DNA of 63,417 bases, counting the filler, from a bacterium (lineage in GTDB: Bacteria > JADJOY01): the NCBI GenBank assembly GCA_046331705.1. It is 9 parts of 9 records of this genome, joined end to end, with 100 filler letters (N's around TTAATTAATTAA, not from the genome) between each part and the next. Parts side by side here need not be neighbours in the genome. Positions count along the whole stretch, not along the records: positions 23,424 to 32,012 come from JAXLQJ010000106.1; 8 more parts are not named here. One strand, 5' to 3'. The notes beneath the pieces are model-generated. The model had not been told where the DNA came from and did not search any database. It worked only from the letters and a program-made list of their open reading frames with translations. Below are positions 3,173 to 56,573 of the stretch, one piece after another (the stretch's first letter is position 1; every line of letters starts with the position of its first letter). Both the position numbers and the translations under genes were made by a program.

Positions 3173-3490
3173 TCAGACCTCGAGCACCACTCGCTCCCCA
3201 TCGTCGAAGACGGCCGCGAGCTCGAGGTGACCTCCGAGCGCCTCGATGTACTCGCGCAGCGTCGAGAGCTGCGGGTCCGCGCTGCGCTCGGCGCGGGAGA
3301 CGCTGGTCTGCTCGACGCCGAGCGCTTCGGCGAGCTGCACCTGTGTGCGGCCGCGCTGCTTCCGCAGCTCGGCGAGCTCGAAGCGCGCATGCTCACGGAG
3401 CGCCGCCTTGCGAATGCGCTCGACGTTGGCCCGGCGCTTCGGATCGGCGAGCACCGGGCCGCTCAGGTCCTTGAAGTTCCGTGCCTTCAT
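3173..3490 (-). CDS. HigA-like XRE antitoxin
   Basis: LAELRKQRGRTQVQLAEALGVEQTSVSRAE...LSTLREYIEALGGHLELAAVF. ATGA overlap with the upstream toxin. Confidence 0.85.
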   Translation of the reverse strand: MKARNFKDLSGPVLADPKRRANVERIRKAALREHARFELAELRKQRGRTQVQLAEALGVEQTSVSRAERSADPQLSTLREYIEALGGHLELAAVFDDGERVVLEV

Positions 3491-3849
3491 GGGATCGAAC
3501 CCTCCTCGCGCAGCTCGGCGAGATACTGCGCGTAGATCGCTTCCGCGCGCGGGATCGCGTCGCGGTACCACTCGTTCCACTGGCCCGACTTGTTGCCCCC
3601 GATGAGGAGCACCGCCTGCCGGATCGGATCGAAGATGAAGAGCACGCGCAGGGCCCCGCCTTCGCTCGCGCGCAGTTCTTTCAGGTTCGGCAGGTTCGAG
3701 CCGATGATCGTGTCCACGGACGGCCGCCCCAGGTTCGGGCCGTGCTCTTCGAGGAGCTGCACGCGGCCCACGAGCGCGTCTTGCTGGTCGGCCGTGAGGG
3801 CGTCCCACCACTCCGCGAATTCGTCGGTGAACAGAACCTCCCAGGGCAT
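3487..3849 (-). CDS. HigB/Gp49-like RelE-superfamily toxin
   Basis: MPWEVLFTDEFAEWW...LLEEHGPNLGRPSVDTIIGS.LPNLKELR...RVLFIFDPIRQAVLLIGGNKSG. Toxin-first order as in higBA. Confidence 0.88.
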   Translation of the reverse strand: MPWEVLFTDEFAEWWDALTADQQDALVGRVQLLEEHGPNLGRPSVDTIIGSNLPNLKELRASEGGALRVLFIFDPIRQAVLLIGGNKSGQWNEWYRDAIPRAEAIYAQYLAELREEGSIP

Positions 3850-4077
3850 GACCGTAGAATGCGCTACAGCGCATACGCAGTCAAGCGCATGTGGGTCGGT
3901 CGACTGAGCGCCCGTACAACATCCTTGACGGTGGTCCGCCAGGCTGCCGATCCCGACTTCGCTGAGGGAAGGCTAGCGACGTCAGGAAGGCGTAGGAGGG
4001 GAATCACGTGAAGCGTCGCAAGCCCGCTCGACGGGTGGATCGACCATCGCGGAGCTCCTGCGCGACGCCGCGCGAGA

Positions 4078-9250: not shown

Positions 9251-10975
<1,725 letters not shown>

Positions 10976-11109
10976 GGGGCGTGTGGCGCGGGCGTGGGCA
11001 ACGGCCGCGTCCTGTGCGCGTGTCGTCGATGATACCGATTCAATTCGCGCGCCGAAACGGCGCCACGCCATCGTTCGAGCGCGCCGACGCTAGCGGTGCG
11101 CGTATCCGG

Positions 11110-11327: not shown

Positions 11328-11541
11328 TTCGCAGTGCAGCGTGCGCGTGATGTGACGCGCGCCGTGCCGCACGCGAGGCCGGTGGTCTCGATCGCCGGTG
11401 CCTCCGTCCTCCGCGTCCCATGGCAGCCGAAGCTGGGCGTGGTGCGCACTGCGCGCGAGGCGTGGTGCGCGCTGGTGGCGATCGCAGTCGTGTTGCATGT
11501 TCAAGCCGATCGTGAATCGAAATGCAGAAGGAGCGAACGGC

Positions 11542-12096
11542 ATGGCTCAGCTCTTACTCAAGCCGTCGAGCCAGGAAGGTGAGTGGACGGTCCGTCCGAT
11601 CGACACGGACGCCGCGCTGGCGCTCGACGAGCGCGGTGCCGCGCGCTCGCTGCGGCGCTGCGACGTGCTCGACGTGTTGCTGCGCGCGCCCGATGGCGCG
11701 GTGCTGCTGGGTGTCGGCGGAGCAGGAGAGCGCTGGCTGCTCGTGGCACGTGCCGGCGTCGATCTTCACGTCAACGACCGGCCAGTCTCGGCGGGTACGC
11801 GCGTGCTGCGCGACAAGGACGAGATCCGCCTGGGCGCCGGCGCGGTGCCGATCTTCTTCTCGACGGAGCGCGTGGCGCGGATCGAGCCGTTCGAGGGCAG
11901 CGGCGTCGCGGCGAGCTGCCCCCGTTGCCGACTGCCGCTCGAGGCCGGCGCGCCGGCGGTGCGCTGCCCGAGTTGCGGCGTCGCGCACCATCAGCGTGAG
12001 GGGCTGCTGTGCTGGACCTACGCCGAGTCCTGCGCCGTGTGCGGTCATCCGACGCCGCTCGAAGCGGATCTTCAGTGGGTCCCGGAGGCGGTGTGA
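11542..12096 (+). CDS. FHA-like domain plus prokaryotic RING finger (candidate E3 ligase)
   Basis: AAGGAG RBS. LHVNDRPVSAGTRVLRDKDEIRLG resembles the FHA C-terminal strands. C-x2-C-x12-C-x2-C-x3-HH-x6-CW-x5-C-x2-C RING-type pattern. Confidence 0.75.
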   Translation: MAQLLLKPSSQEGEWTVRPIDTDAALALDERGAARSLRRCDVLDVLLRAPDGAVLLGVGGAGERWLLVARAGVDLHVNDRPVSAGTRVLRDKDEIRLGAGAVPIFFSTERVARIEPFEGSGVAASCPRCRLPLEAGAPAVRCPSCGVAHHQREGLLCWTYAESCAVCGHPTPLEADLQWVPEAV

Positions 12097-12172
12097 AGCG
12101 GCGCGGCCCGCGCGGAAGCCGCGTGGGCGCGCGTGCGTCGATCGAGCCAACGATGAGGAGCGAGGGAAAGCC

Positions 12173-13309
12173 GTGGTGACCGTGACGTTGATCGGGCTTG
12201 GGGTGGTTGGGTCCCACGCCGTGGGACTGCTCATCCGGATGGGGCTCATCGACCGGCTGATCCTGGTCGACCCCGACGTCTACGACGAGTCCAACCTCAC
12301 GAGCCAGTGCATCGAGCCGCGGGACGTGGGGCGGCCGAAGGTGCTGGCGCAGAAGCGACGGGTGCGCGCGATCGCGCCCGGCATCGACGTCACGGCGATC
12401 CAGAGCCGCCTCGAGGACCTTCCGCCTGGACGACTGCGGGCGGACGTGATCGTTACGTGCCTGGATTCAGCCGCGGCGCGGATCGACGCGAACGAGATCG
12501 CGGGAATGCTGGGCGTGCCGCTCATCGATACCGGTGTGCGCGGCGCGGATCTGCTGGGTCGCGTGGATGTCTACCTGCCCAGCCCGAGATGCGCGTGCTT
12601 CGAGTGCCTGCTCGCGGCCCACGACTACCAGCAGGCCGAGGTCGTTCACTCGTGCGAGGAAGGTCGCGATCCGCGCCGCGCGCGGCCGACACCGGCGCCA
12701 AGCGCGACGTCGGCCGCCCTCGGCTCGTTGGTCGCCTCCGCGACGGTCGTCGTGCTCGAGGAGCTCCTGCGCTCGCGCGATCCGGGCGCGCTCGCCGGCC
12801 GCCGCATTCTGTTCGAGCTCCGAAACCATCGGCACGCCGTCAGCCGGCTACCGTTCAATCCCGCGTGCCGGCGCTCGCCGCACGAGCCGTGGGCGATTCG
12901 ATCGTTCGGCGAGCACGCCTCGCGCCTCACGTTCACCGAGCTTCACGCGCAGGTGGGCGCCGCCACGAGCGACGCCGCCATCCGGATCTTCGGCACGCGC
13001 TTCGTGACCGAGGTCGTGTGCGTGCGCTGTGGGCGAAAGCGCCGAGTGGTGCGCGTCGAGCGCGGCCTCGGTGGCGCGCGGGGTTGGTGCGGTGCATGTC
13101 ATCGCCCGATGGAAGTGACGAGCCTCGGTCTCGTGGAGTGGCTGCCGCTCGCGGCGCTCACGTCGCGTGAGCTGGATCGCGCTCTCGAGAGCTTCGGCCT
13201 CGCGCGCGGCGACGTCGTCACGATTCGCTCACGCGGGACCGAGCGACACGTCGAGCTCAAGTTGCCGCGCGGCGCGGGCGGCGCCGCGCAGGCGAGGGAG
13301 GAGTCATGA
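12173..13309 (+). CDS. ThiF/MoeB-family E1-like activating enzyme with C-terminal Zn ribbon
   Basis: LIGLGVVGS (GxGxxG), VDPDVYDESNLTSQ, GRPKV, CLDS.AAR, CFEC, candidate catalytic HSC, C-terminal CVRC...CGAC. GTG start inferred. Confidence 0.88.
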   Translation: MVTVTLIGLGVVGSHAVGLLIRMGLIDRLILVDPDVYDESNLTSQCIEPRDVGRPKVLAQKRRVRAIAPGIDVTAIQSRLEDLPPGRLRADVIVTCLDSAAARIDANEIAGMLGVPLIDTGVRGADLLGRVDVYLPSPRCACFECLLAAHDYQQAEVVHSCEEGRDPRRARPTPAPSATSAALGSLVASATVVVLEELLRSRDPGALAGRRILFELRNHRHAVSRLPFNPACRRSPHEPWAIRSFGEHASRLTFTELHAQVGAATSDAAIRIFGTRFVTEVVCVRCGRKRRVVRVERGLGGARGWCGACHRPMEVTSLGLVEWLPLAALTSRELDRALESFGLARGDVVTIRSRGTERHVELKLPRGAGGAAQAREES

Positions 13310-13685
13310 ACGATCCGCAGTTGCAGGGCTTCCTGCGCGAGCAGCAAAAGGCCGCGCACGCGCTCAACGCCGCCAGCGATGTGGTGACGCTGGTTCCGTT
13401 GCCGCGCGGCTTCCACGCGCTCGACACGCTGGGCGGGCTGCTTCAGCTCCTCGGTGCCCCGGTGGCGCTCGACGCGGAGCCGGGGCTCGGTCCGGAGACC
13501 GAAGAGCCCCCGACCCACTACCTGGCCCGGTTCTCGTGCGGAGGGTTGGTCCGGAACCCGGACGGGAGCGTGCGCACGGCCAGCGACTGGCTCGTGGGGA
13601 TTCGCTTTTCCGACGACTACCTACGCCGCGTACGACCGTTCGAGGTGGTGACGTTCATCGGTCCCGAGAGCGTGTGGCACCCCAA
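13306..13685 (+). CDS. E2 (UBC-like) conjugating enzyme, 5' part; continues at 31991-31751 on the minus strand
   Basis: GGAGGAG RBS, ATGA overlap with E1. Ends ...VGIRFSDDY...GPESVWHP at the contig end; the last 21 nt overlap the contig 3 end. Confidence 0.85.
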
Positions 13686-13785
13686 NNNNNNNNNNNNNNN
13701 NNNNNNNNNNNNNNNNNNNNNNNNNNNNNTTAATTAATTAANNNNNNNNNNNNNNNNNNNNNNNNNNNNNNNNNNNNNNNNNNNN
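13686..13785. other. Artificial contig linker (also 23324-23423, 32013-32112, 38885-38984, 45642-45741, 51190-51289, 54587-54686, 60160-60259)
   Basis: N-run, TTAATTAATTAA (stops in all frames), N-run; 100 nt each. Confidence 0.99.
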
Positions 13786-23098: not shown

Positions 23099-23423
23099 CA
23101 AGATCCCTACTGAGCGAGCCTGAGCGGGCCGCGCGTGCGCCCCGACGGGCGCACTCGTGCGAACGTCCGGGCGCAGCCTCGGATCCGCCCCCACGGAATT
23201 CACGAACGATCGAGCGATCGGCGGAGCGGCACGCCGCGTGCGTTCGGTTCGCCCACCATGGCGCGTCCGATCCGATGGCTTCAGCCCCACACGCGCTGGT
23301 TCGTCACATCCCGTGCGCTCGAGNNNNNNNNNNNNNNNNNNNNNNNNNNNNNNNNNNNNNNNNNNNNTTAATTAATTAANNNNNNNNNNNNNNNNNNNNN
23401 NNNNNNNNNNNNNNNNNNNNNNN

Positions 23424-25607
23424 CTCGCGAACGACGTCGCCGCCATGGGGCCGGATGCGCAGCTCCGCCGCGCGCGCCGCCGGCGTTCCGATCGCGATCG
23501 ATCCGTCGCTCGACGCGGACGCAAGCCGCTGACTGCCGTCGGGACACCAGGCCAGGCTGTAGACCACGTCCCGATGCGGGCGCGTCTCCACGTGGGCGCC
23601 GAACCGCGCGCCGCCCGCCTCGCCGCGCTCGACGGCCCAGATGCGCACGGTCCCGTCGCAATAGCCCACGGCGAGCTCGCCCCGATCGGACCACGCGAGC
23701 GATCGCGCGGAGCCCTCGGAGACGCGCGCGCTGTCGAGCGCGATCCCGTCGCGGCTCCAGAGCCGGACCTCGCCGTCCTTCGCGGCCGATGCCAAGAGCG
23801 CACCACGCCGATCCCAGCGCACCAGACGCACCCAGTCGGCGTGGCCTTCGAGCGTGGCGACCGCGCTTCCGGTGGCGTCGTCCCAGAGTCGGACGGTGCC
23901 ATCCGTGGACGAGCTCGCGAGCCTGAGCCCGTCGCACGACCACTCGAGCCAGCTCACCGGCTCCGCGTGACCGGAAAGCTCGCGGATCAGCCGCACGCCG
24001 TCGAGGCGTTCCCGGCCTCGCTGCCGAAGGCGCAGCATGCGCCCGATCGCGTCGTTCGGACCTCCGGCTGGCTCGGGTACCCAGCTCTCGACCGTCGTGA
24101 ACGGGTCCGTGAGATCGAGTCGCTCGAACCCGTCGCCCTGCGATGCGGGCCGCCAGACGGCGCGCCAATCGCAGAGCGCCTTCGGCTCGTGCGCCAGCTT
24201 CCGCACCCACTCGCCGCGCAACCGGGCGCGCCCTTCGGACGGCGGCTCGGTGAGCGCCGGCTCCACGTCCTCGGCGCCGCGCACCCGATGGGCGGCGAGC
24301 CCCACGGTCTCGAGCTGCGCGTGAAGTCCGTTGCGCCCGATCTCGGCGAAACGCCAGTCGATCTCGAAGAGCTCGGCGCGCAGCGCTCGCAGCCGTGCGA
24401 ACGCGTCGAAATCGGGTAACGCCGCATCGGGCGGCGCGAACGACCGGTACGCGCGCCGCGCCTCCCCAGCGTCTCCGATCACCAGGTCGAAAGGACGAAG
24501 CTGCGGGTTGCGGTCGTGGGCTGCTGGCCACTGCCGCCGCAACGCCACGAGCGCGGCGTTGAGCTGCTCGATCTGCTCGCGGGTGAATCCGCGCTGGGCG
24601 GCGTGCTGGGCGAAGAGCCGACGTTTGGCCGTCCAATCGAGCGAGAGCTCGGTCGCGTCGTCGAGAGCGTCGAGCCCGTCGAGAACCGCGCGCCACTCGC
24701 GGCACGCTTCGCGGGCCCAGCTCGGCAGATGCACCGCGCCGTCGCCGAGGGCGCCCTCGACGACCGCGAGGTACGCACGCTGGAGCTCGATGGCGCTCGC
24801 GAGCTCGCCGCCCGCCACTCGGGCGCGCTTCGTGAGGCCCGGATCGCGCGCGAAGCGCTGCATCGCCGCGAGCGGTCGCACGAGCTGCCCGCGCGCACCG
24901 AGCGCTCGGCCCTGCTCCGCGAGCGTGATCACCAGCGCCGTGGTGGCGAGCTTGAGCCAGAGCGCGCGATCGGACGCATTCGACTCGCCGCAGATCAGAT
25001 GGACGCGCTTCTGACCTGGCGGCGCGTGGGGCTCGTCCCGGGTGTGGAAGATCGGTCGCTCGGTCTGACTGTCGCCGCCGATGTCGCGGGTCAGATGATG
25101 GACCCGCGGCGAGAGCGAGAACGCGATCCCCGGCGACGACGCATCGAATCCGCCAGCGCCCGTGTACACGATGCGCGAGACCAGGTGCGGGATCAGCACC
25201 CGCGCCAGGCCCGCGATGTCGCCGCGGAAGAGATAGCTCTCGTGGGTGCCCCACGTGCACCCGGACACGTAGTCCACGTTGGTGCGAAAGAGCTTGCCGT
25301 CGACGGGGCCGCCCTCGCTCCGCAGCAGTCGTGCCAGGATCCGCTCGCCGGCGCGGACGTAGCGCACGGCGTCCGTGGGATCGACGACCTCGGCCGTAGC
25401 CACCTCGGGGTGCCAGCCCGCGTCGACGTAGAAGCAAGAGCCGTTGGTGAGCCAGAGCCGCCGCCCGCTGGCGTCGCGCAGATGAGGGAGCGTGGATTGG
25501 GCGGCGCGGAACAGCTCCTCGACGAGCGCTCCCGAAGGGCGCGTTCCCGAGACGAACGCGAACTCGGTCTCGACGCCGAAGAACGTCCGCGCCGCCGCTG
25601 CTGGCAT
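23424..25607 (-). CDS. PafA-like Pup ligase fused to C-terminal WD40 repeats (3'-truncated by contig end)
   Basis: FFGVETEFA, NGSCFYVDAGWHPEVATAE, TWGTHESYL, RPIFHTRDEPHA, RVHLICGESN, RARLRGEWV..CDW..LTDPF, then at least four GH...LAS.S.DG.VRLW repeats. ATG overlaps the Pup stop (TAATG). Confidence 0.9.
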
Positions 25608-25807
25608 TACTGGCCTCCCTCCTGGCGGCTCGCGGCCAGGAACTGCTCGCTGTTGCCCGAGAGCACGCGGCGCACGATGTCCTGGCCCGCCGCGAGCAGC
25701 CGATCTCCGGCCGCGCGCGCGGCATCGAGCGCACCCGCCCCATCGTCCGCGCCGCTCGGCGGCCCGCCCGTCCCCGAATGCTCCCGTCGTCGTTCGCGTT
25801 CCGACAT
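25607..25807 (-). CDS. Pup-like (prokaryotic ubiquitin-like) modifier, 66 aa, ending GGQ
   Basis: GGAGGTGAGG RBS; low-complexity N-terminus; C-terminus SEQFLAASRQEGGQ resembles Pup AEDFVRAYVQKGGQ; lies between the dop-like and pafA-like genes. Confidence 0.88.
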   Translation of the reverse strand: MSERERRREHSGTGGPPSGADDGAGALDAARAAGDRLLAAGQDIVRRVLSGNSEQFLAASRQEGGQ

Positions 25808-30440: not shown

Positions 30441-30728
30441 TCACGCACCCGCACCCGCATCGATCGACGGCTGGATCACCAGCTCGTCACCCGGCTGAAG
30501 CGCGTCGCCCACTCGCTCGGACGGCACCAGGTGCCGCCCCTCGCGATCGAGGCGCGGATGGTAGGCCTGCGGCCGGCCGTCCGCGTCCTTCGCTGGCAGA
30601 CCAAGCCCCTTCACGATGTCCTTGAGCAAGAGCTCGATCGTGCGGTCCGGCGGCGAGGCCATGTCCACCCGCTTCTGGCCCGTCACGTCCGTGGCGCGAA
30701 AGGCGATGGAAAGCTGTGAATCACCCAT
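30441..30728 (-). CDS. Ubiquitin-like (beta-grasp) protein, 95 aa
   Basis: GAGGAG RBS. Beta-grasp-like pattern (strand-strand, helix TIELLLKDIVKGLGLP, ...SERVGDALQPGDELVIQP), C-terminus IDAGAGA; adjacent to JAB. Confidence 0.8.
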   Translation of the reverse strand: MGDSQLSIAFRATDVTGQKRVDMASPPDRTIELLLKDIVKGLGLPAKDADGRPQAYHPRLDREGRHLVPSERVGDALQPGDELVIQPSIDAGAGA

Positions 30729-30800: not shown

Positions 30801-31754
30801 TCACTCCTCCACGTCCTCTGCCGCCTGGACCTCGTCCCCCCACACGTCGACACCGCGAGCGGCGAGAAACGCCCGTGCCGCAAGCTCGTCGGCGAGGCAG
30901 GCCACCTCCCGGTGCGACGCTTCGAACGCGGCGCTCATGGCGCCGAGCGCCAGATCGAGCGCGCGCGGTGTCGCCGGCGCCGGCAACCAGATCTCCCAAC
31001 CGAACGTGCGCTCCGGCTCGGGGCCGCAGATCGGGCGCGCGAGCCGCACGCTCGCCGCGACCTCGAGCAGCAACCGCGCGGCCGCTGCCCGACCGACCAC
31101 GCCGCACGGCGGCGACGTCGCGAGCGTGCCGCGAACCCAGATGCCATCGGGCTCATCGGTGACCCGCGCCTCGAGACTGACGTCGTCGGAATCGAGGTTC
31201 ACCTCGACGACGTCGCCCGGCGTGCGCATCGACACCCACTCCGTGTCCGCGAGCACGTGAAGCAAACCGTCCAGATCCGGCGCGTAATCCGGCGCGGCGT
31301 TCTCGCTCGACACCGCCGGCGCATCGTCGAGCGAGGTGTTCGCGTGAGCCCGGTGCAGCGCCGCAGGGACCTGGTCCAGCAGCACCGCGAGCCAGCGATC
31401 CGCGCCGAGCGTGAGCGGCACGTCGGCGAGCAGCGCGTGCGCCTTCGTCGCACGTGGGCGCGCGATCCTCACCCCGCCGCCCAGCTCGCGCGCGAGACGC
31501 AAGACGTCCAAGTCGCTCACCGGCGCGAGCGCGCCGTCGAGGGGCACCGTGAGCCCAAGCCAGGCGCCCTCGAGCTCGGCCCAGCCCTCGACGAGCCGGC
31601 CATTGCGATGCTCGAAGCGCATCTGGCGCGGATCGGCGGAATCGATCCGCGCACCGCTGCGCGCGAAGGCGCTTCGCACCTCGCGCGCCGCGCGACCGCT
31701 CTCGCACCACCCATCCATGTCCTGCATGCCAGCCACGCGATCGACGGCGTTCAT
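30801..31754 (-). CDS. Hypothetical 317-aa protein (possibly tandem YbjN/chaperone-like folds)
   Basis: ATGA overlap with the E2 stop; lies inside the operon; fold guess is from hydrophobic pattern only. Confidence 0.6.
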   Translation of the reverse strand: MNAVDRVAGMQDMDGWCESGRAAREVRSAFARSGARIDSADPRQMRFEHRNGRLVEGWAELEGAWLGLTVPLDGALAPVSDLDVLRLARELGGGVRIARPRATKAHALLADVPLTLGADRWLAVLLDQVPAALHRAHANTSLDDAPAVSSENAAPDYAPDLDGLLHVLADTEWVSMRTPGDVVEVNLDSDDVSLEARVTDEPDGIWVRGTLATSPPCGVVGRAAAARLLLEVAASVRLARPICGPEPERTFGWEIWLPAPATPRALDLALGAMSAAFEASHREVACLADELAARAFLAARGVDVWGDEVQAAEDVEE

Positions 31755-32012
31755 GCCGAGACCTCCGATGCTTGCGCCGGCGGCGCGCGACGCTTGAGCG
31801 GGCGCGTATCCACCGGAAAGCGCGAGCGGTTCGCGGGGTCGCGCGCCCACGCCGCGGCCGCGGGATCGAGGCAGTCGTCGAGCCGGAACCGGTTCCAGCT
31901 CACGATCTCCCAGACCTGGTAGACGAGATCGAGAAGCGCCGTTCCCGCGGTGACGTTCCCGATGCAGATCGCGTGCTTGCGACCGGCGATGTTGGGGTGC
32001 CACACGCTCTCG
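31751..32012 (-). CDS. E2 (UBC-like) conjugating enzyme, 3' part
   Basis: VWHPNIAGRKHAICIG (HPN...catalytic C), LLDLVYQVWEIVSW, DCLDPAAAAWAR (PLN.EAA-like), FPVD.RPL. Confidence 0.88.
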
Positions 32013-32112
32013 NNNNNNNNNNNNNNNNNNNNNNNNNNNNNNNNNNNNNNNNNNNNTTAATTAATTAANNNNNNNNNNNNNNNNNNNNNNNNNNNNNNNN
32101 NNNNNNNNNNNN

Positions 32113-39644: not shown

Positions 39645-39845
39645 TCAGCCCCCTCCCACGAAGCGGATGATCTCCACCTGGTCGCCGTCGGCGAGCGTGC
39701 GCGCGGCGTGCTCGGACCGGGGCACGACCTCGCGGTTCACCTCGACCGCGCCGTAGCGCTGGTCCACGCCGAGGCGCGCGAGCAGCTCGGCCACGGTCAG
39801 CGGCCCCTCGAGCTCGCGGGCCTCGCCATTCACGATCAGCTTCAT
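39645..39845 (-). CDS. thiS: Sulfur carrier protein ThiS
   Basis: MKLIVNGE...[12 protein letters not shown]...[13 protein letters not shown]; directly upstream of thiG. Confidence 0.96.
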
Positions 39846-39918
39846 CGCGGAAGGCGTAGCACGCCCCACAACCCCTTGTCCCCTGGCCTCGCACGCCGCC
39901 GGGGACCCGAGGTCATCG

Positions 39919-39950
39919 TCGTAAACCGAGCTGCTCGGCATGGTTGACGA
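39919..39950. promoter_or_regulatory. BirA-type biotin operator
   Basis: tcGTAAACC-N14-GGTTGACga, against proteobacterial consensus TTGTAAACC-N14-16-GGTTTACAA, directly upstream of bioF. Confidence 0.8.
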
Positions 39951-39985
39951 TGGCGAATTTGCAAATTAGATCGCACGGTTTCGCC

Positions 39986-55660: not shown

Positions 55661-56407
55661 CTAACCAGACGCTCGACGTTTGTCGGGATGAGCGTGCTCA
55701 ATCCCCGTCATCACAGCGAGTGCCTCGGTGGCCGCCCCGCGCACACGGTGCTGGTAGAGGTGGCTCACGGGCGTGTCCTCGCGGTTGATCTCGACGGTGA
55801 CCGCGCCCGCGGCCATCGCGATCTTCGGCAATTCGGCGGCCGGATGCACGACACCGGAGGTGCCGATCGTCACGAGGAGATCGCAGCCCGCGAGCGCCTC
55901 GAAGGCGCGGCGGAGGGTGCGCAAATCGAGCCGGTCCTCGAACCACACGATGTCGGGACGGAGGTACGCGCCGCACGAGCACCGGCGCGTCGTGATCGGG
56001 ACTGTCTGGTCCGGGCGGACGGTCTTCTCCGCGTCACACCGCACGCGCCAAAGGGCCCCGTGCAGCTCGATGACCTCCGTGGCGCCGGCGCGCTGGTGGA
56101 GGCCGTCGATGTTCTGCGTGATGATCGTGGTCCTGGGCTTGTTCCTCTGCGTCGAGGCGATGATCGCGTGCGCGAGGTTCGGCTCGCACCCTGCGACGGC
56201 GGCTCGGCGCTTGTCGTGGAAGTCCCAGACCTTCTCCGGATCGCGATCGAACGCCCGCTGGCAGGCGTAGTTCTCGTAGTCGTACTCGGCCCAGACGCCG
56301 CCCGCACCGCGGTACGTCGGGACGCCGCTCTCGGCGGAGAGGCCGGCGCCGGTGAAGAAGACGATGCGCTCGAAGTCATCGAGGCGAACGACGTCCACGA
56401 CGCGCAC
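55661..56407 (-). CDS. cobB: NAD-dependent protein deacylase (sirtuin, CobB-like)
   Basis: FTGAGLSAESGVPTYRG, ITQNIDGLHQRAG, ELHG, LRPDIVWF, IGTSGVVHPAA. Confidence 0.92.
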   Translation of the reverse strand: MRVVDVVRLDDFERIVFFTGAGLSAESGVPTYRGAGGVWAEYDYENYACQRAFDRDPEKVWDFHDKRRAAVAGCEPNLAHAIIASTQRNKPRTTIITQNIDGLHQRAGATEVIELHGALWRVRCDAEKTVRPDQTVPITTRRCSCGAYLRPDIVWFEDRLDLRTLRRAFEALAGCDLLVTIGTSGVVHPAAELPKIAMAAGAVTVEINREDTPVSHLYQHRVRGAATEALAVMTGIEHAHPDKRRASG

Positions 56408-56411
56408 CGCC

Positions 56412-56573
56412 CTACTTCCTCACCCCGACGACTTGTCCGTTCTGGATCCGGATCTTGAAGTTCTTGTGACACTGGTGGCACTGCCCCCAGCCCTCTCCGG
56501 AGCCGCTCCCGATTCCGTGGTTCTGCGGCCCCGTGCTTCCACAGTGCGGGCACACGACGACGACGATGGGCAT
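56412..56573 (-). CDS. 53-aa Zn-ribbon microprotein (below ORF-track cutoff)
   Basis: GGAGG RBS; MPIVVVVCPHCGSTGPQNHGIGSGSGEGWGQCHQCHKNFKIRIQNGQVVGVRK-stop; ends 4 nt before the sirtuin start. Confidence 0.7.
   Translation of the reverse strand: MPIVVVVCPHCGSTGPQNHGIGSGSGEGWGQCHQCHKNFKIRIQNGQVVGVRK

Follow-up and report, generated by a model that had tools for sequence, protein, structure and literature searches.

A Pup-ligase-family protein with an in-frame WD40 tail in a putative two-tag operon of a bacterium

Introduction

A stretch of bacterial DNA of 63,417 nt (assembly GCA_046331705.1), referred to below as the window, carries a gene in which the catalytic core of a Pup-ligase/deamidase-family enzyme continues in frame into WD40 repeats. 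Sequence comparisons indicate that this fusion is natural and recurrent, and the fused gene comes last among the tagging genes of a conserved operon in which genes for a ubiquitin-like cascade stand next to genes for a Pup-like cascade. The reading that best fits the data, to which we assign a probability of roughly 0.6, is a Pup ligase to which targets or partners are recruited by a repeat tail that varies across the family.

In the available text of two sources, PafA is described as acting alone, with hundreds of proteins as targets and no dedicated receptor (PMC10465538; bioRxiv 10.64898/2026.04.10.717840). No description of a fusion between a Pup ligase and WD40 repeats was found in the papers searched, and the operon may have been mentioned before; the available portions of two reviews (PMC12288473, PMC7203096) contained no passage on the subject. 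Public databases contain the fusion with automatic annotations, for example 'Pup-ligase protein/WD domain, G-beta repeat'. It constitutes a rare receptor-like tail in an unusual two-tag operon.

Results

A single reading frame joins the core to WD40 repeats

The window consists of nine contigs chained by spacers, each composed of 44 N, TTAATTAATTAA and a further 44 N; genes on either side of a spacer are therefore not genomic neighbours. All coordinates count along the window. The fused gene is located on the contig at 23424–32012 (JAXLQJ010000106.1), on which all genes lie on the minus strand. Translation of positions 23424–25607 yields a single open frame of 728 codons without a stop, which begins with the ATG at 25607–25605. 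These 2184 bases represent the 5´ part of the gene, and the frame stops at 23424 because the contig ends there.

A preliminary description of this DNA had proposed that a ligase domain runs in frame into at least four WD40 repeats at about 23980–23424, and had named reads with a stop or frameshift between the two parts, or a misassembly there, as the observations that would overturn the proposal. No such interruption is present in the window sequence, and Pfam identifies both families within the one frame. The Pup_ligase family (PF03136) matches with 265 bits (cut-off 25) at residues 45–349 and in a second stretch, within the first 350 residues. The WD40 family (PF00400) matches with 94.9 bits (cut-off 27) in three stretches above threshold, the first of which covers residues 540–576 (from about position 23990), and the repeats are cut by the contig end as the description had stated. 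The three motifs that it had listed were likewise located in the translation: GVETEF at residues 11–16, RDEPHA at 190–195 and DPF at 501–503. When counted by eye, the propeller part comprises four full blades and the beginning of a fifth. It matches WD40 proteins of the PDB with an E-value of 7.5e-71, and the repeats also match the Cdc20/Fizzy and APC4 WD40 models below their cut-offs. At third codon positions, the guanine-cytosine content amounts to 0.88 over the ligase part and to 0.89 over the WD40 repeats.

An attempt at extending the gene used the 21-mer at 23424, which is shared with no other contig end within the window. A public metagenome contig of 2268 bases (L004) is nearly identical to the window over the 3´ half of a Dop-like gene, a small tag gene and the ligase to residue 318, with a few differences, among them a His-to-Asp change at ligase residue 292. 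This contig is independent support for that stretch only, as it stops short of the WD40 part.

The fusion recurs in full-length relatives

A whole-protein search covered 1.84 billion representatives, and its matches were dominated by large WD40 proteins. The only fusion to emerge from it was P0209, a protein of 796 residues with a Pup_ligase core and a full propeller according to Pfam. When the search was repeated with P0209, PF03136 and PF00400 occurred together in nine clusters among the 120 proteins listed (P0209, P0268–P0273, P0275 and the fragment P0274), which derive from JGI, ENA, Logan and NCBI. Eight of these nine clusters, with lengths of 788–838 residues, are colinear with window residues 6–725 at 33.7–39.3% identity, through the linker into the repeats. 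Given these lengths, the window copy is short by about 90–110 residues. A scan of genome contigs with the window protein returned three loci only, of which one is unfused, one has a split ligase frame and one encodes an unrelated WD40 protein.

The structure of P0275, which is 39% identical to the window protein, was modelled with AlphaFold2 from a 60-row alignment (mean predicted local distance difference test score, pLDDT, 89.6; predicted template modelling score 0.73). Foldseek aligned the N-terminal part of the model with Dop (TMt 0.77–0.90) and with PafA (TMt 0.73–0.76), and the C-terminal part with seven-blade propellers such as WDR5 and PkwA (TMt 0.8–0.9). The Dop/PafA fold, including the C-terminal helical domain, is thus seen in the model of this full-length relative. 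Residues 516–525 of P0275, which correspond to the window linker, fall below a pLDDT of 50. According to this model, the full-length relatives are predicted to close a seven-blade propeller, which in the window copy would be cut in blade 5.

Residues around the catalytic Asp resemble PafA

Canonical PafA and canonical Dop were both considered as identities of the core, and both were ruled out by the NCBIfam cut-offs. The core contains GVETE at residues 11–15, which corresponds to the GxExE nucleotide-binding motif, and Asp62 in the sequence YVDAG aligns with the catalytic Asp of Dop and PafA. The available part of PMC7947786 describes a GhExE motif and a catalytic Asp in the cradle of carboxylate-amine ligases, and its table 1 lists positions that discriminate PafA from Dop. 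Beside the Asp, the window protein reads D-A-G-W-HPE-V-A-T-A-E, with the one-residue insertion, the Gly and the A-T-A triad of the PafA type; a Trp replaces the PafA Ser. The Dop traits, namely the lack of an insertion after the Asp, a Ser-x-Pro triad and the Dop-loop, are absent from the window core. For the window copy, the residues around the Asp lean towards a ligase without settling the choice between ligase and hydrolase, and ligase activity appears the more probable function of the fused enzyme.

The nearest relatives (40–45% identical) are hundreds of proteins of 510–565 residues that carry the automatic label 'PafA2 family'; their record names include Acidobacteriota, Planctomycetota, Verrucomicrobiota, Gemmatimonadales and others. 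In a tree of ligase cores with 77 rows, rooted on Dop-like paralogues, the window protein and these relatives form one clade with 100% support in the Shimodaira-Hasegawa-like approximate likelihood ratio test (SH-aLRT). In the available text of Hecht et al. 2020 (PMC7947786), Planctomycetes homologues of 'both Dop and PafA' were taken as the outgroup to both. On sequence grounds, the window enzyme belongs to a separate non-actinobacterial clade that is neither canonical PafA nor canonical Dop.

The features of Dop are found in a separate gene of the same operon. The Dop-like paralogue scores 267 bits with TIGR03688 (Dop) and 212 bits with TIGR03686 (PafA). It aligns without gaps to Dop around the catalytic Asp, lacks the one-residue insertion and retains the Dop-type Pro, and some 80 residues, with Gly, Tyr and Ser abundant among them, are inserted at the position of the Dop-loop. 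The same protein reads RDEALC where Dop and PafA have RDEPHA, followed by a 12-residue insertion.

The adjoining gene encodes a Pup-like tag

The stop codon of a small tag gene and the ATG of the ligase gene have one base in common. The tag matches no Pfam family (including Pup, PF05639) and no NCBIfam family at E-values up to 10. In the PDB, the two highest-ranking matches are both Pup (E 0.19 and 0.31), and these alignments extend to the C-terminus. Homologous open reading frames (ORFs) occur in 63 of 72 metagenome loci; 36 of them end in GGQ, 27 in GGE and none otherwise, and a conserved helix-forming stretch precedes this ending. Pup is characterised, in the portion of PMC2588565 available, by a length of 50–90 residues, a G[EQ] C-terminus and a gene adjoining a PafA homologue. 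The tag, with its 66 residues, GGQ end and adjacency to a PafA-like gene, agrees with this description.

A complex of the ligase core and the tag was modelled. The mark by which it was judged had been reached by 58 out of 80 complexes of solved structure, against 2 out of 110 mismatched pairs; these counts apply only approximately, since our own alignments were used. The complex scored 0.83, compared with 0.01 for the best of three controls. The runs share at least 92% of contacts, and the partner pLDDT is at least 65. Tag residues 55–65 contact ligase residues 15, 17 and 62–66. The model supports the prediction that the tag binds to the core in such a way that the C-terminal end of the tag occupies the active site; a similar complex of PafA and Pup (4BJR) has already been solved, so that the model may have passed by likeness only.

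The C-terminal tail varies across the family

It had been suggested that the C-terminal domains of homologous ligases be surveyed for variability. The survey found such variability: mostly no tail, in many cases a TPR-type tail and in few a WD40 tail. Among the best 120 homologues of the window protein, a precomputed domain column lists WD40 in none and TPR families in seven. Forty-six long homologues (636–1028 residues), scanned for domains at E 1e-5 or better, comprise five with TPR, one with WD40 and 40 with the core only. A rescan of 38 of these 40 at E 0.01 or better added 17 with TPR-type matches and one with an ARM/TPR-type match, and left 20 with none. TPR matches were also obtained in four of the seven long forms encoded in the loci. 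In four loci (L017, L029, L031 and L037), a second long PafA-like copy of about 700–940 residues, in some cases with TPR, accompanies an untailed copy in the operon. At the level of sequence, this variability fits a putative added module for recognition or docking.

Seven WD40-fused proteins form one clade with 99% support in the free tree of ligase cores. An approximately unbiased (AU) test was performed on a reduced set of 39 rows chosen by hand under a simpler model, with six of the nine WD40-fused rows, 30 of 63 others and three of five outgroup rows. The tree that holds the six WD40-fused rows together was not rejected, and obtained a p-AU of 0.635 and a log-likelihood 11.47 above that of the free quick tree. 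A single origin of the fusion would be compatible with these data.

The fused gene closes a conserved operon

The contig ends at 13665–13685 (plus strand) and 31992–32012 (minus strand) overlap by exactly 21 bases, and an E2-like frame continues through the overlap. The two contigs could be joined at this point, which would place the genes for a RING-finger protein, an E1 and the E2 directly before the contig of the fused ligase; with these genes at 11398–13685 of the first contig, the whole operon is present in the organism (Table 1). Its order as read from the sequence would be RING, E1, E2, a 317-residue protein, a ubiquitin-like protein (Ubl), JAB, Mpa-like AAA, Dop-like, Pup-like and PafA-like with WD40.

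Conservation was counted in 72 loci from a scan of metagenome contigs, together with L001–L003, by phmmer searches of the window proteins against six-frame ORFs. The Dop-like, Pup-like and PafA-like genes occur together in 54 loci, and AAA with Dop-like and PafA-like in 37. JAB, AAA, Dop-like and PafA-like are combined in 25 loci, the same four with E2 and Ubl in 18, and all eight rear genes in 11. Loci with missing genes are mostly short contigs. The gene order is constant over the loci; in three of them ORF starts seem swapped by 13–172 bases, because frames delimited by stop codons begin ahead of the actual starts. In five long loci, the region before E2 encodes a ThiF-type E1 (5/5 scanned) and a prokaryotic RING-finger protein (3/3 scanned). 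In three of these five loci, the gene after the PafA-like one encodes an AAA protein of 380–400 residues whose lid is of the ClpB type (AAA_lid_9).

Table 1. Features of the window and of related loci. Positions preceded by a locus number refer to that locus.
Feature	Position	Strand	Evidence and remarks
Pup-ligase/deamidase-family core, residues 1–510	24078–25607	-	PF03136
Linker, residues 511–535 (25 residues)	24003–24077	-	no family match
WD40 repeats, residues 536–728	23424–24002	-	PF00400; four blades and a fifth begun, cut by contig end
Pup-like tag gene, 66 residues, ends RQEGGQ	25607–25807	-	directly upstream of ligase
Dop-like paralogue, 589 residues	25814–27583	-	PF03136, 308.9 bits
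Mpa/ARC-like AAA+ ATPase, 577 residues	27607–29340	-	AAA and proteasomal-ATPase OB domain (Pfam)
JAB/MPN-type peptidase, 349 residues	29360–30409	-	Prok-JAB E 8.8e-5, JAB E 0.0036, both below cut-off; PADLOC JAB E 8.1e-5
Ubiquitin-like (beta-grasp) candidate, 95 residues, ends IDAG-AGA	30441–30728	-	weak YukD match, E 0.0021
Conserved protein between E2 and Ubl, 317 residues	30801–31754	-	candidate: two YbjN/CesT chaperone-like halves
E2-like enzyme, C-terminal part (HPN...C)	31751–32012	-	matches L011 E2 residues 94–169, E 1e-20; runs off contig end
E2-like enzyme, N-terminal part, start not fixed	13318–13685	+	matches L011 E2 residues 12–100
ThiF-type E1-like enzyme, start not fixed	12101–13309	+	PF00899, 98.9 bits; L011 E1, E 5e-63
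Prokaryotic RING-finger protein (E3 candidate)	11398–12096	+	Prok-RING_1 E 3.5e-6, 27.3 bits (cut-off 29.1); L011 homologue E 1e-36
Sigma-54-interaction-domain ATPase, RtcR/PspF-like	9251–11071	-	PADLOC E 8.7e-53; divergent from RING gene
Spacers	13686–13785; 23324–23423; 32013–32112; five further places
AAA proteins with ClpB-type lid	L025 13326–14468; L054 11811–12953; L035 11585–12784
Extra long PafA-like copies	L017 2247–5078; L029 17230–19365 (-); L031 19308–21419 (-); L037 2292–4421
Conflict-type flank genes	L011 154–3357; L031 426–3307, 17018–19102; L035 2–1768, 13725–21235

The Mpa-like ATPase matches TIGR03689 (pup_AAA) with 245.8 bits (cut-off 504.75) over model positions 15–481 of 512. 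The E2 proteins of L011 and L031 give weak matches to UQ_con, and the HPN motif and the Cys are kept across the loci. Homologues of the Ubl candidate terminate with a conserved (D/E/N)AG or continue for two to three residues beyond it, which in the window protein are AGA. This pattern suggests that the JAB peptidase may trim the Ubl candidate to a bare terminal Gly. The 317-residue protein has no match in Pfam, NCBIfam or PADLOC and none by Foldseek at E 0.001 or better. Atlas comparisons (scores 0.84–0.91) point to YbjN/CesT. The AlphaFold2 model has a pLDDT of 71.6, and its halves align with chaperone folds of type III secretion systems at TMt 0.6–0.66 with weak E-values (0.02 or worse), which is to be taken as a lead only. 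This protein may serve the Ubl module as an adaptor.

No proteasome subunits are found beside the operons of five relatives

No proteasome subunits were detected among the flanking genes scanned in the loci of five relatives. The proteasome family PF00227 gave a single match in the genome that contains L002 and no match in that of L001; neither genome is of known completeness. The portion of Iyer et al. 2008 (PMC2588565) available describes Pup/PafA loci in Plesiocystis and Rhodopirellula without linked proteasome genes. The preliminary description had assumed a setting of housekeeping pupylation, which does not suit a gene that closes an operon with a RING/E1/E2/Ubl/JAB cascade at loci where no proteasome genes were found.

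The flanks of the relatives contain genes for NACHT-TPR-DUF4062, TIR, TIR-phosphofructokinase and RyR-AAA proteins and for an RtcR/PspF-like sigma-54-type ATPase, which in itself is no more than a hint of a conflict or stress island. RtcR/PspF-like genes are located near the operon in L011, L031 and L035 as well as in the window, and this ATPase may regulate the operon. PADLOC has no model that matches the ligase, the tag, the Ubl candidate, the RING protein or the 317-residue protein. A known anti-phage system was considered and rejected, since PADLOC gave only generic E1, JAB and AAA matches.

Other contigs of the window encode a Gp49-like (DUF891) protein (3487–3972, minus strand), a SIR2-family protein (55661–56419, minus strand) and a ThiS-family protein beside an aminotransferase (39645–39965, minus strand). 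The 24 other ORFs of the window that were scanned included no taxonomic marker gene.

Discussion

The data are best explained by a Pup ligase with an attached recruiting tail, and a possible course of the reaction can be outlined. The Dop-like paralogue would deamidate the C-terminal Gln of the 66-residue tag (GGQ to GGE) and would also remove tags. The fused enzyme would bind the C-terminal half of the tag, activate its terminal Glu with ATP and join the tag to a lysine. The propeller, like the TPR tails of relatives, would be an accessory part through which the ligase is supplied with a particular target or a partner from the system; it may in this way select substrates, and the chances that it has a recruiting role at all appear evenly balanced. 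The Mpa-like ATPase would then engage the tagged proteins without a 20S core.

Several observations weigh against this reading. On NCBIfam, the core scores 200 bits with the PafA model TIGR03686 (cut-off 551.3) and 198.6 bits with the Dop model TIGR03688 (cut-off 492.3), and is thus equidistant from the two and far under both cut-offs. Among solved structures, Dop (4b0r, 160.6 bits) scores higher than PafA (4b0t, 108.7 bits). The core had initially been called a complete PafA domain, a designation that these scores do not sustain. In the alpha-loop, one of nine positions is of the PafA type (His) and one of nine of the Dop type (Gly). The triad consensus of the wider family is S-T-P, as in Dop, which makes the A-T-A of the window an exception. 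Most family members are tail-free, and the free tree placed neither P0275 nor the window protein (P0001). The 72 metagenome loci do not include the WD40 form; of 401 genomes searched in the phylum of G001, 12 have a Pup-ligase-family match and none of these matches reaches the WD40 part. Among the fused proteins, only that of the window is consequently seen in its operon. No binding partner of the propeller was found in the analysis, and the low-confidence linker of the P0275 model allows no fixed geometry between ligase and propeller to be read. Finally, the fused gene is cut by the contig end, and its protein is a prediction from the sequence.

The foremost alternative, less favoured and on balance unlikely, is that the propeller docks or regulates within the system and is not a substrate receptor: it may serve as a tether between the ligase and another component (the Mpa-like ring, Ubl-modified proteins or the RING/E2 module), or keep the ligase inactive until a signal is received. 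WD40 and TPR repeats are general interaction scaffolds, and the operon encodes many candidate partners together with two tagging chemistries that would need coordination. The flexibility of the linker in the P0275 model and the TPR-tailed extra copies beside untailed operon copies in four loci, as if tails specialise copies, are also in line with docking. Most operons are tail-free, however, so the core machine needs no such dock, and the propeller in the window is incomplete.

A bolder extension of the recruiting-tail reading is tentative and rather doubtful. The repeat tail, WD40 here and TPR in relatives, would be the target-recognition or sensor module of a proteasome-independent machine with two tags, Ubl and Pup, and a ligase of the glutamine-synthetase fold would have arrived independently at the guidance by receptors that characterises eukaryotic E3 enzymes. 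Such a machine may have a part in conflicts, such as those with phages, in which Pup would mark specific foreign or damaged proteins that the Mpa-like ATPase then unfolds. The TIR, NACHT-TPR, TIR-phosphofructokinase and RtcR/PspF-like neighbours in relatives would fit this role.

Hydrolase activity of the fused enzyme, as a depupylase or a deamidase, or an altered catalysis is improbable; ligation would in that case be performed by the Dop-like paralogue or another enzyme, and the propeller would target tag removal. The closer match of the core to Dop than to PafA structures, the S-T-P triad of the family consensus and of P0209, and the outgroup position given to Planctomycetes homologues in the available text of Hecht et al. 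(PMC7947786) would agree with a hydrolase. The window protein nevertheless has the PafA-type insertion, Gly and A-T-A and no Dop-loop, and the Dop-type features sit in the neighbouring paralogue. Two paralogues that flank a GGQ/GGE tag also reproduce the actinobacterial division of labour, as described in part of PMC2588565.

An assembly or sequencing artefact, in which a lost stop merged two genes or a chimeric contig arose, might be suspected from a short contig (8.6 kilobases) of a fragmented assembly that breaks inside repeats, and is very unlikely in view of the modelled P0275, the uniform codon bias across the junction and the eight independent clusters from several sources, all of which are colinear in this fusion and have linkers of comparable length.

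The preferred reading, a Pup ligase with a recruiting tail, can be compared with known systems. The window enzyme shares with PafA (TIGR03686; 4B0T, 4BJR) the family, the fold, the GxExE motif, the catalytic Asp, the insertion, the Gly, the A-T-A triad and the lack of a Dop-loop. As with PafA, its gene adjoins that of a small tag, here ending in GGQ, whose C-terminus is predicted to lie in the active site. It differs from PafA in its identity of about 25% to PafA structures (measured on the P0275 model), in an alpha-loop that is not PafA-type, in the C-terminal WD40 propeller and in an operon with E1, E2, RING, Ubl and JAB. With Dop (TIGR03688; 4B0R, 5LRT) it has in common the family, core scores above those with PafA structures and the S-T-P consensus of its relatives; it differs in the missing Dop-loop, in the post-Asp insertion and in the presence of a separate Dop-like paralogue two genes upstream.

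The non-actinobacterial Pup/PafA loci of Plesiocystis and Rhodopirellula resemble the window in having a tag of 50–90 residues with a G[EQ] end, adjoining PafA homologues and no proteasome linkage, according to the available parts of PMC2588565 and PMC7947786. In contrast, the ligases in those loci have a four-helix membrane insertion, and these same parts describe no WD40 or TPR tail and do not mention an E1/E2/RING/JAB module for them. The TPR-tailed 'PafA2 family' proteins belong to the same core clade at 40–45% identity and likewise add repeats after about residue 510–540. Their tail is an alpha-solenoid rather than a beta-propeller; they are far commoner than the WD40 form and are known by automatic annotation only.

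In eukaryotic ubiquitin ligases, WD40 receptors such as Cdc20/Fizzy, F-box-WD40 and DCAF proteins are separate adaptors of RING/cullin E3 enzymes, which rely on thioester chemistry. Their likeness to the fusion is one of analogy only, a propeller joined to a protein-tagging machine. In the fusion, the propeller is part of the same chain as a ligase with a glutamine-synthetase fold and acyl-phosphate chemistry.

If the reading is true, a Pup-family ligase with a built-in propeller, together with its TPR-tailed cousins, would be the first sign that pupylation chemistry can be aimed by a modular receptor. A single operon in which ubiquitin-like and Pup-like cascades are combined with an unfoldase, and which seems to lack a proteasome, would bear on the origin and cooperation of bacterial protein-tagging systems.

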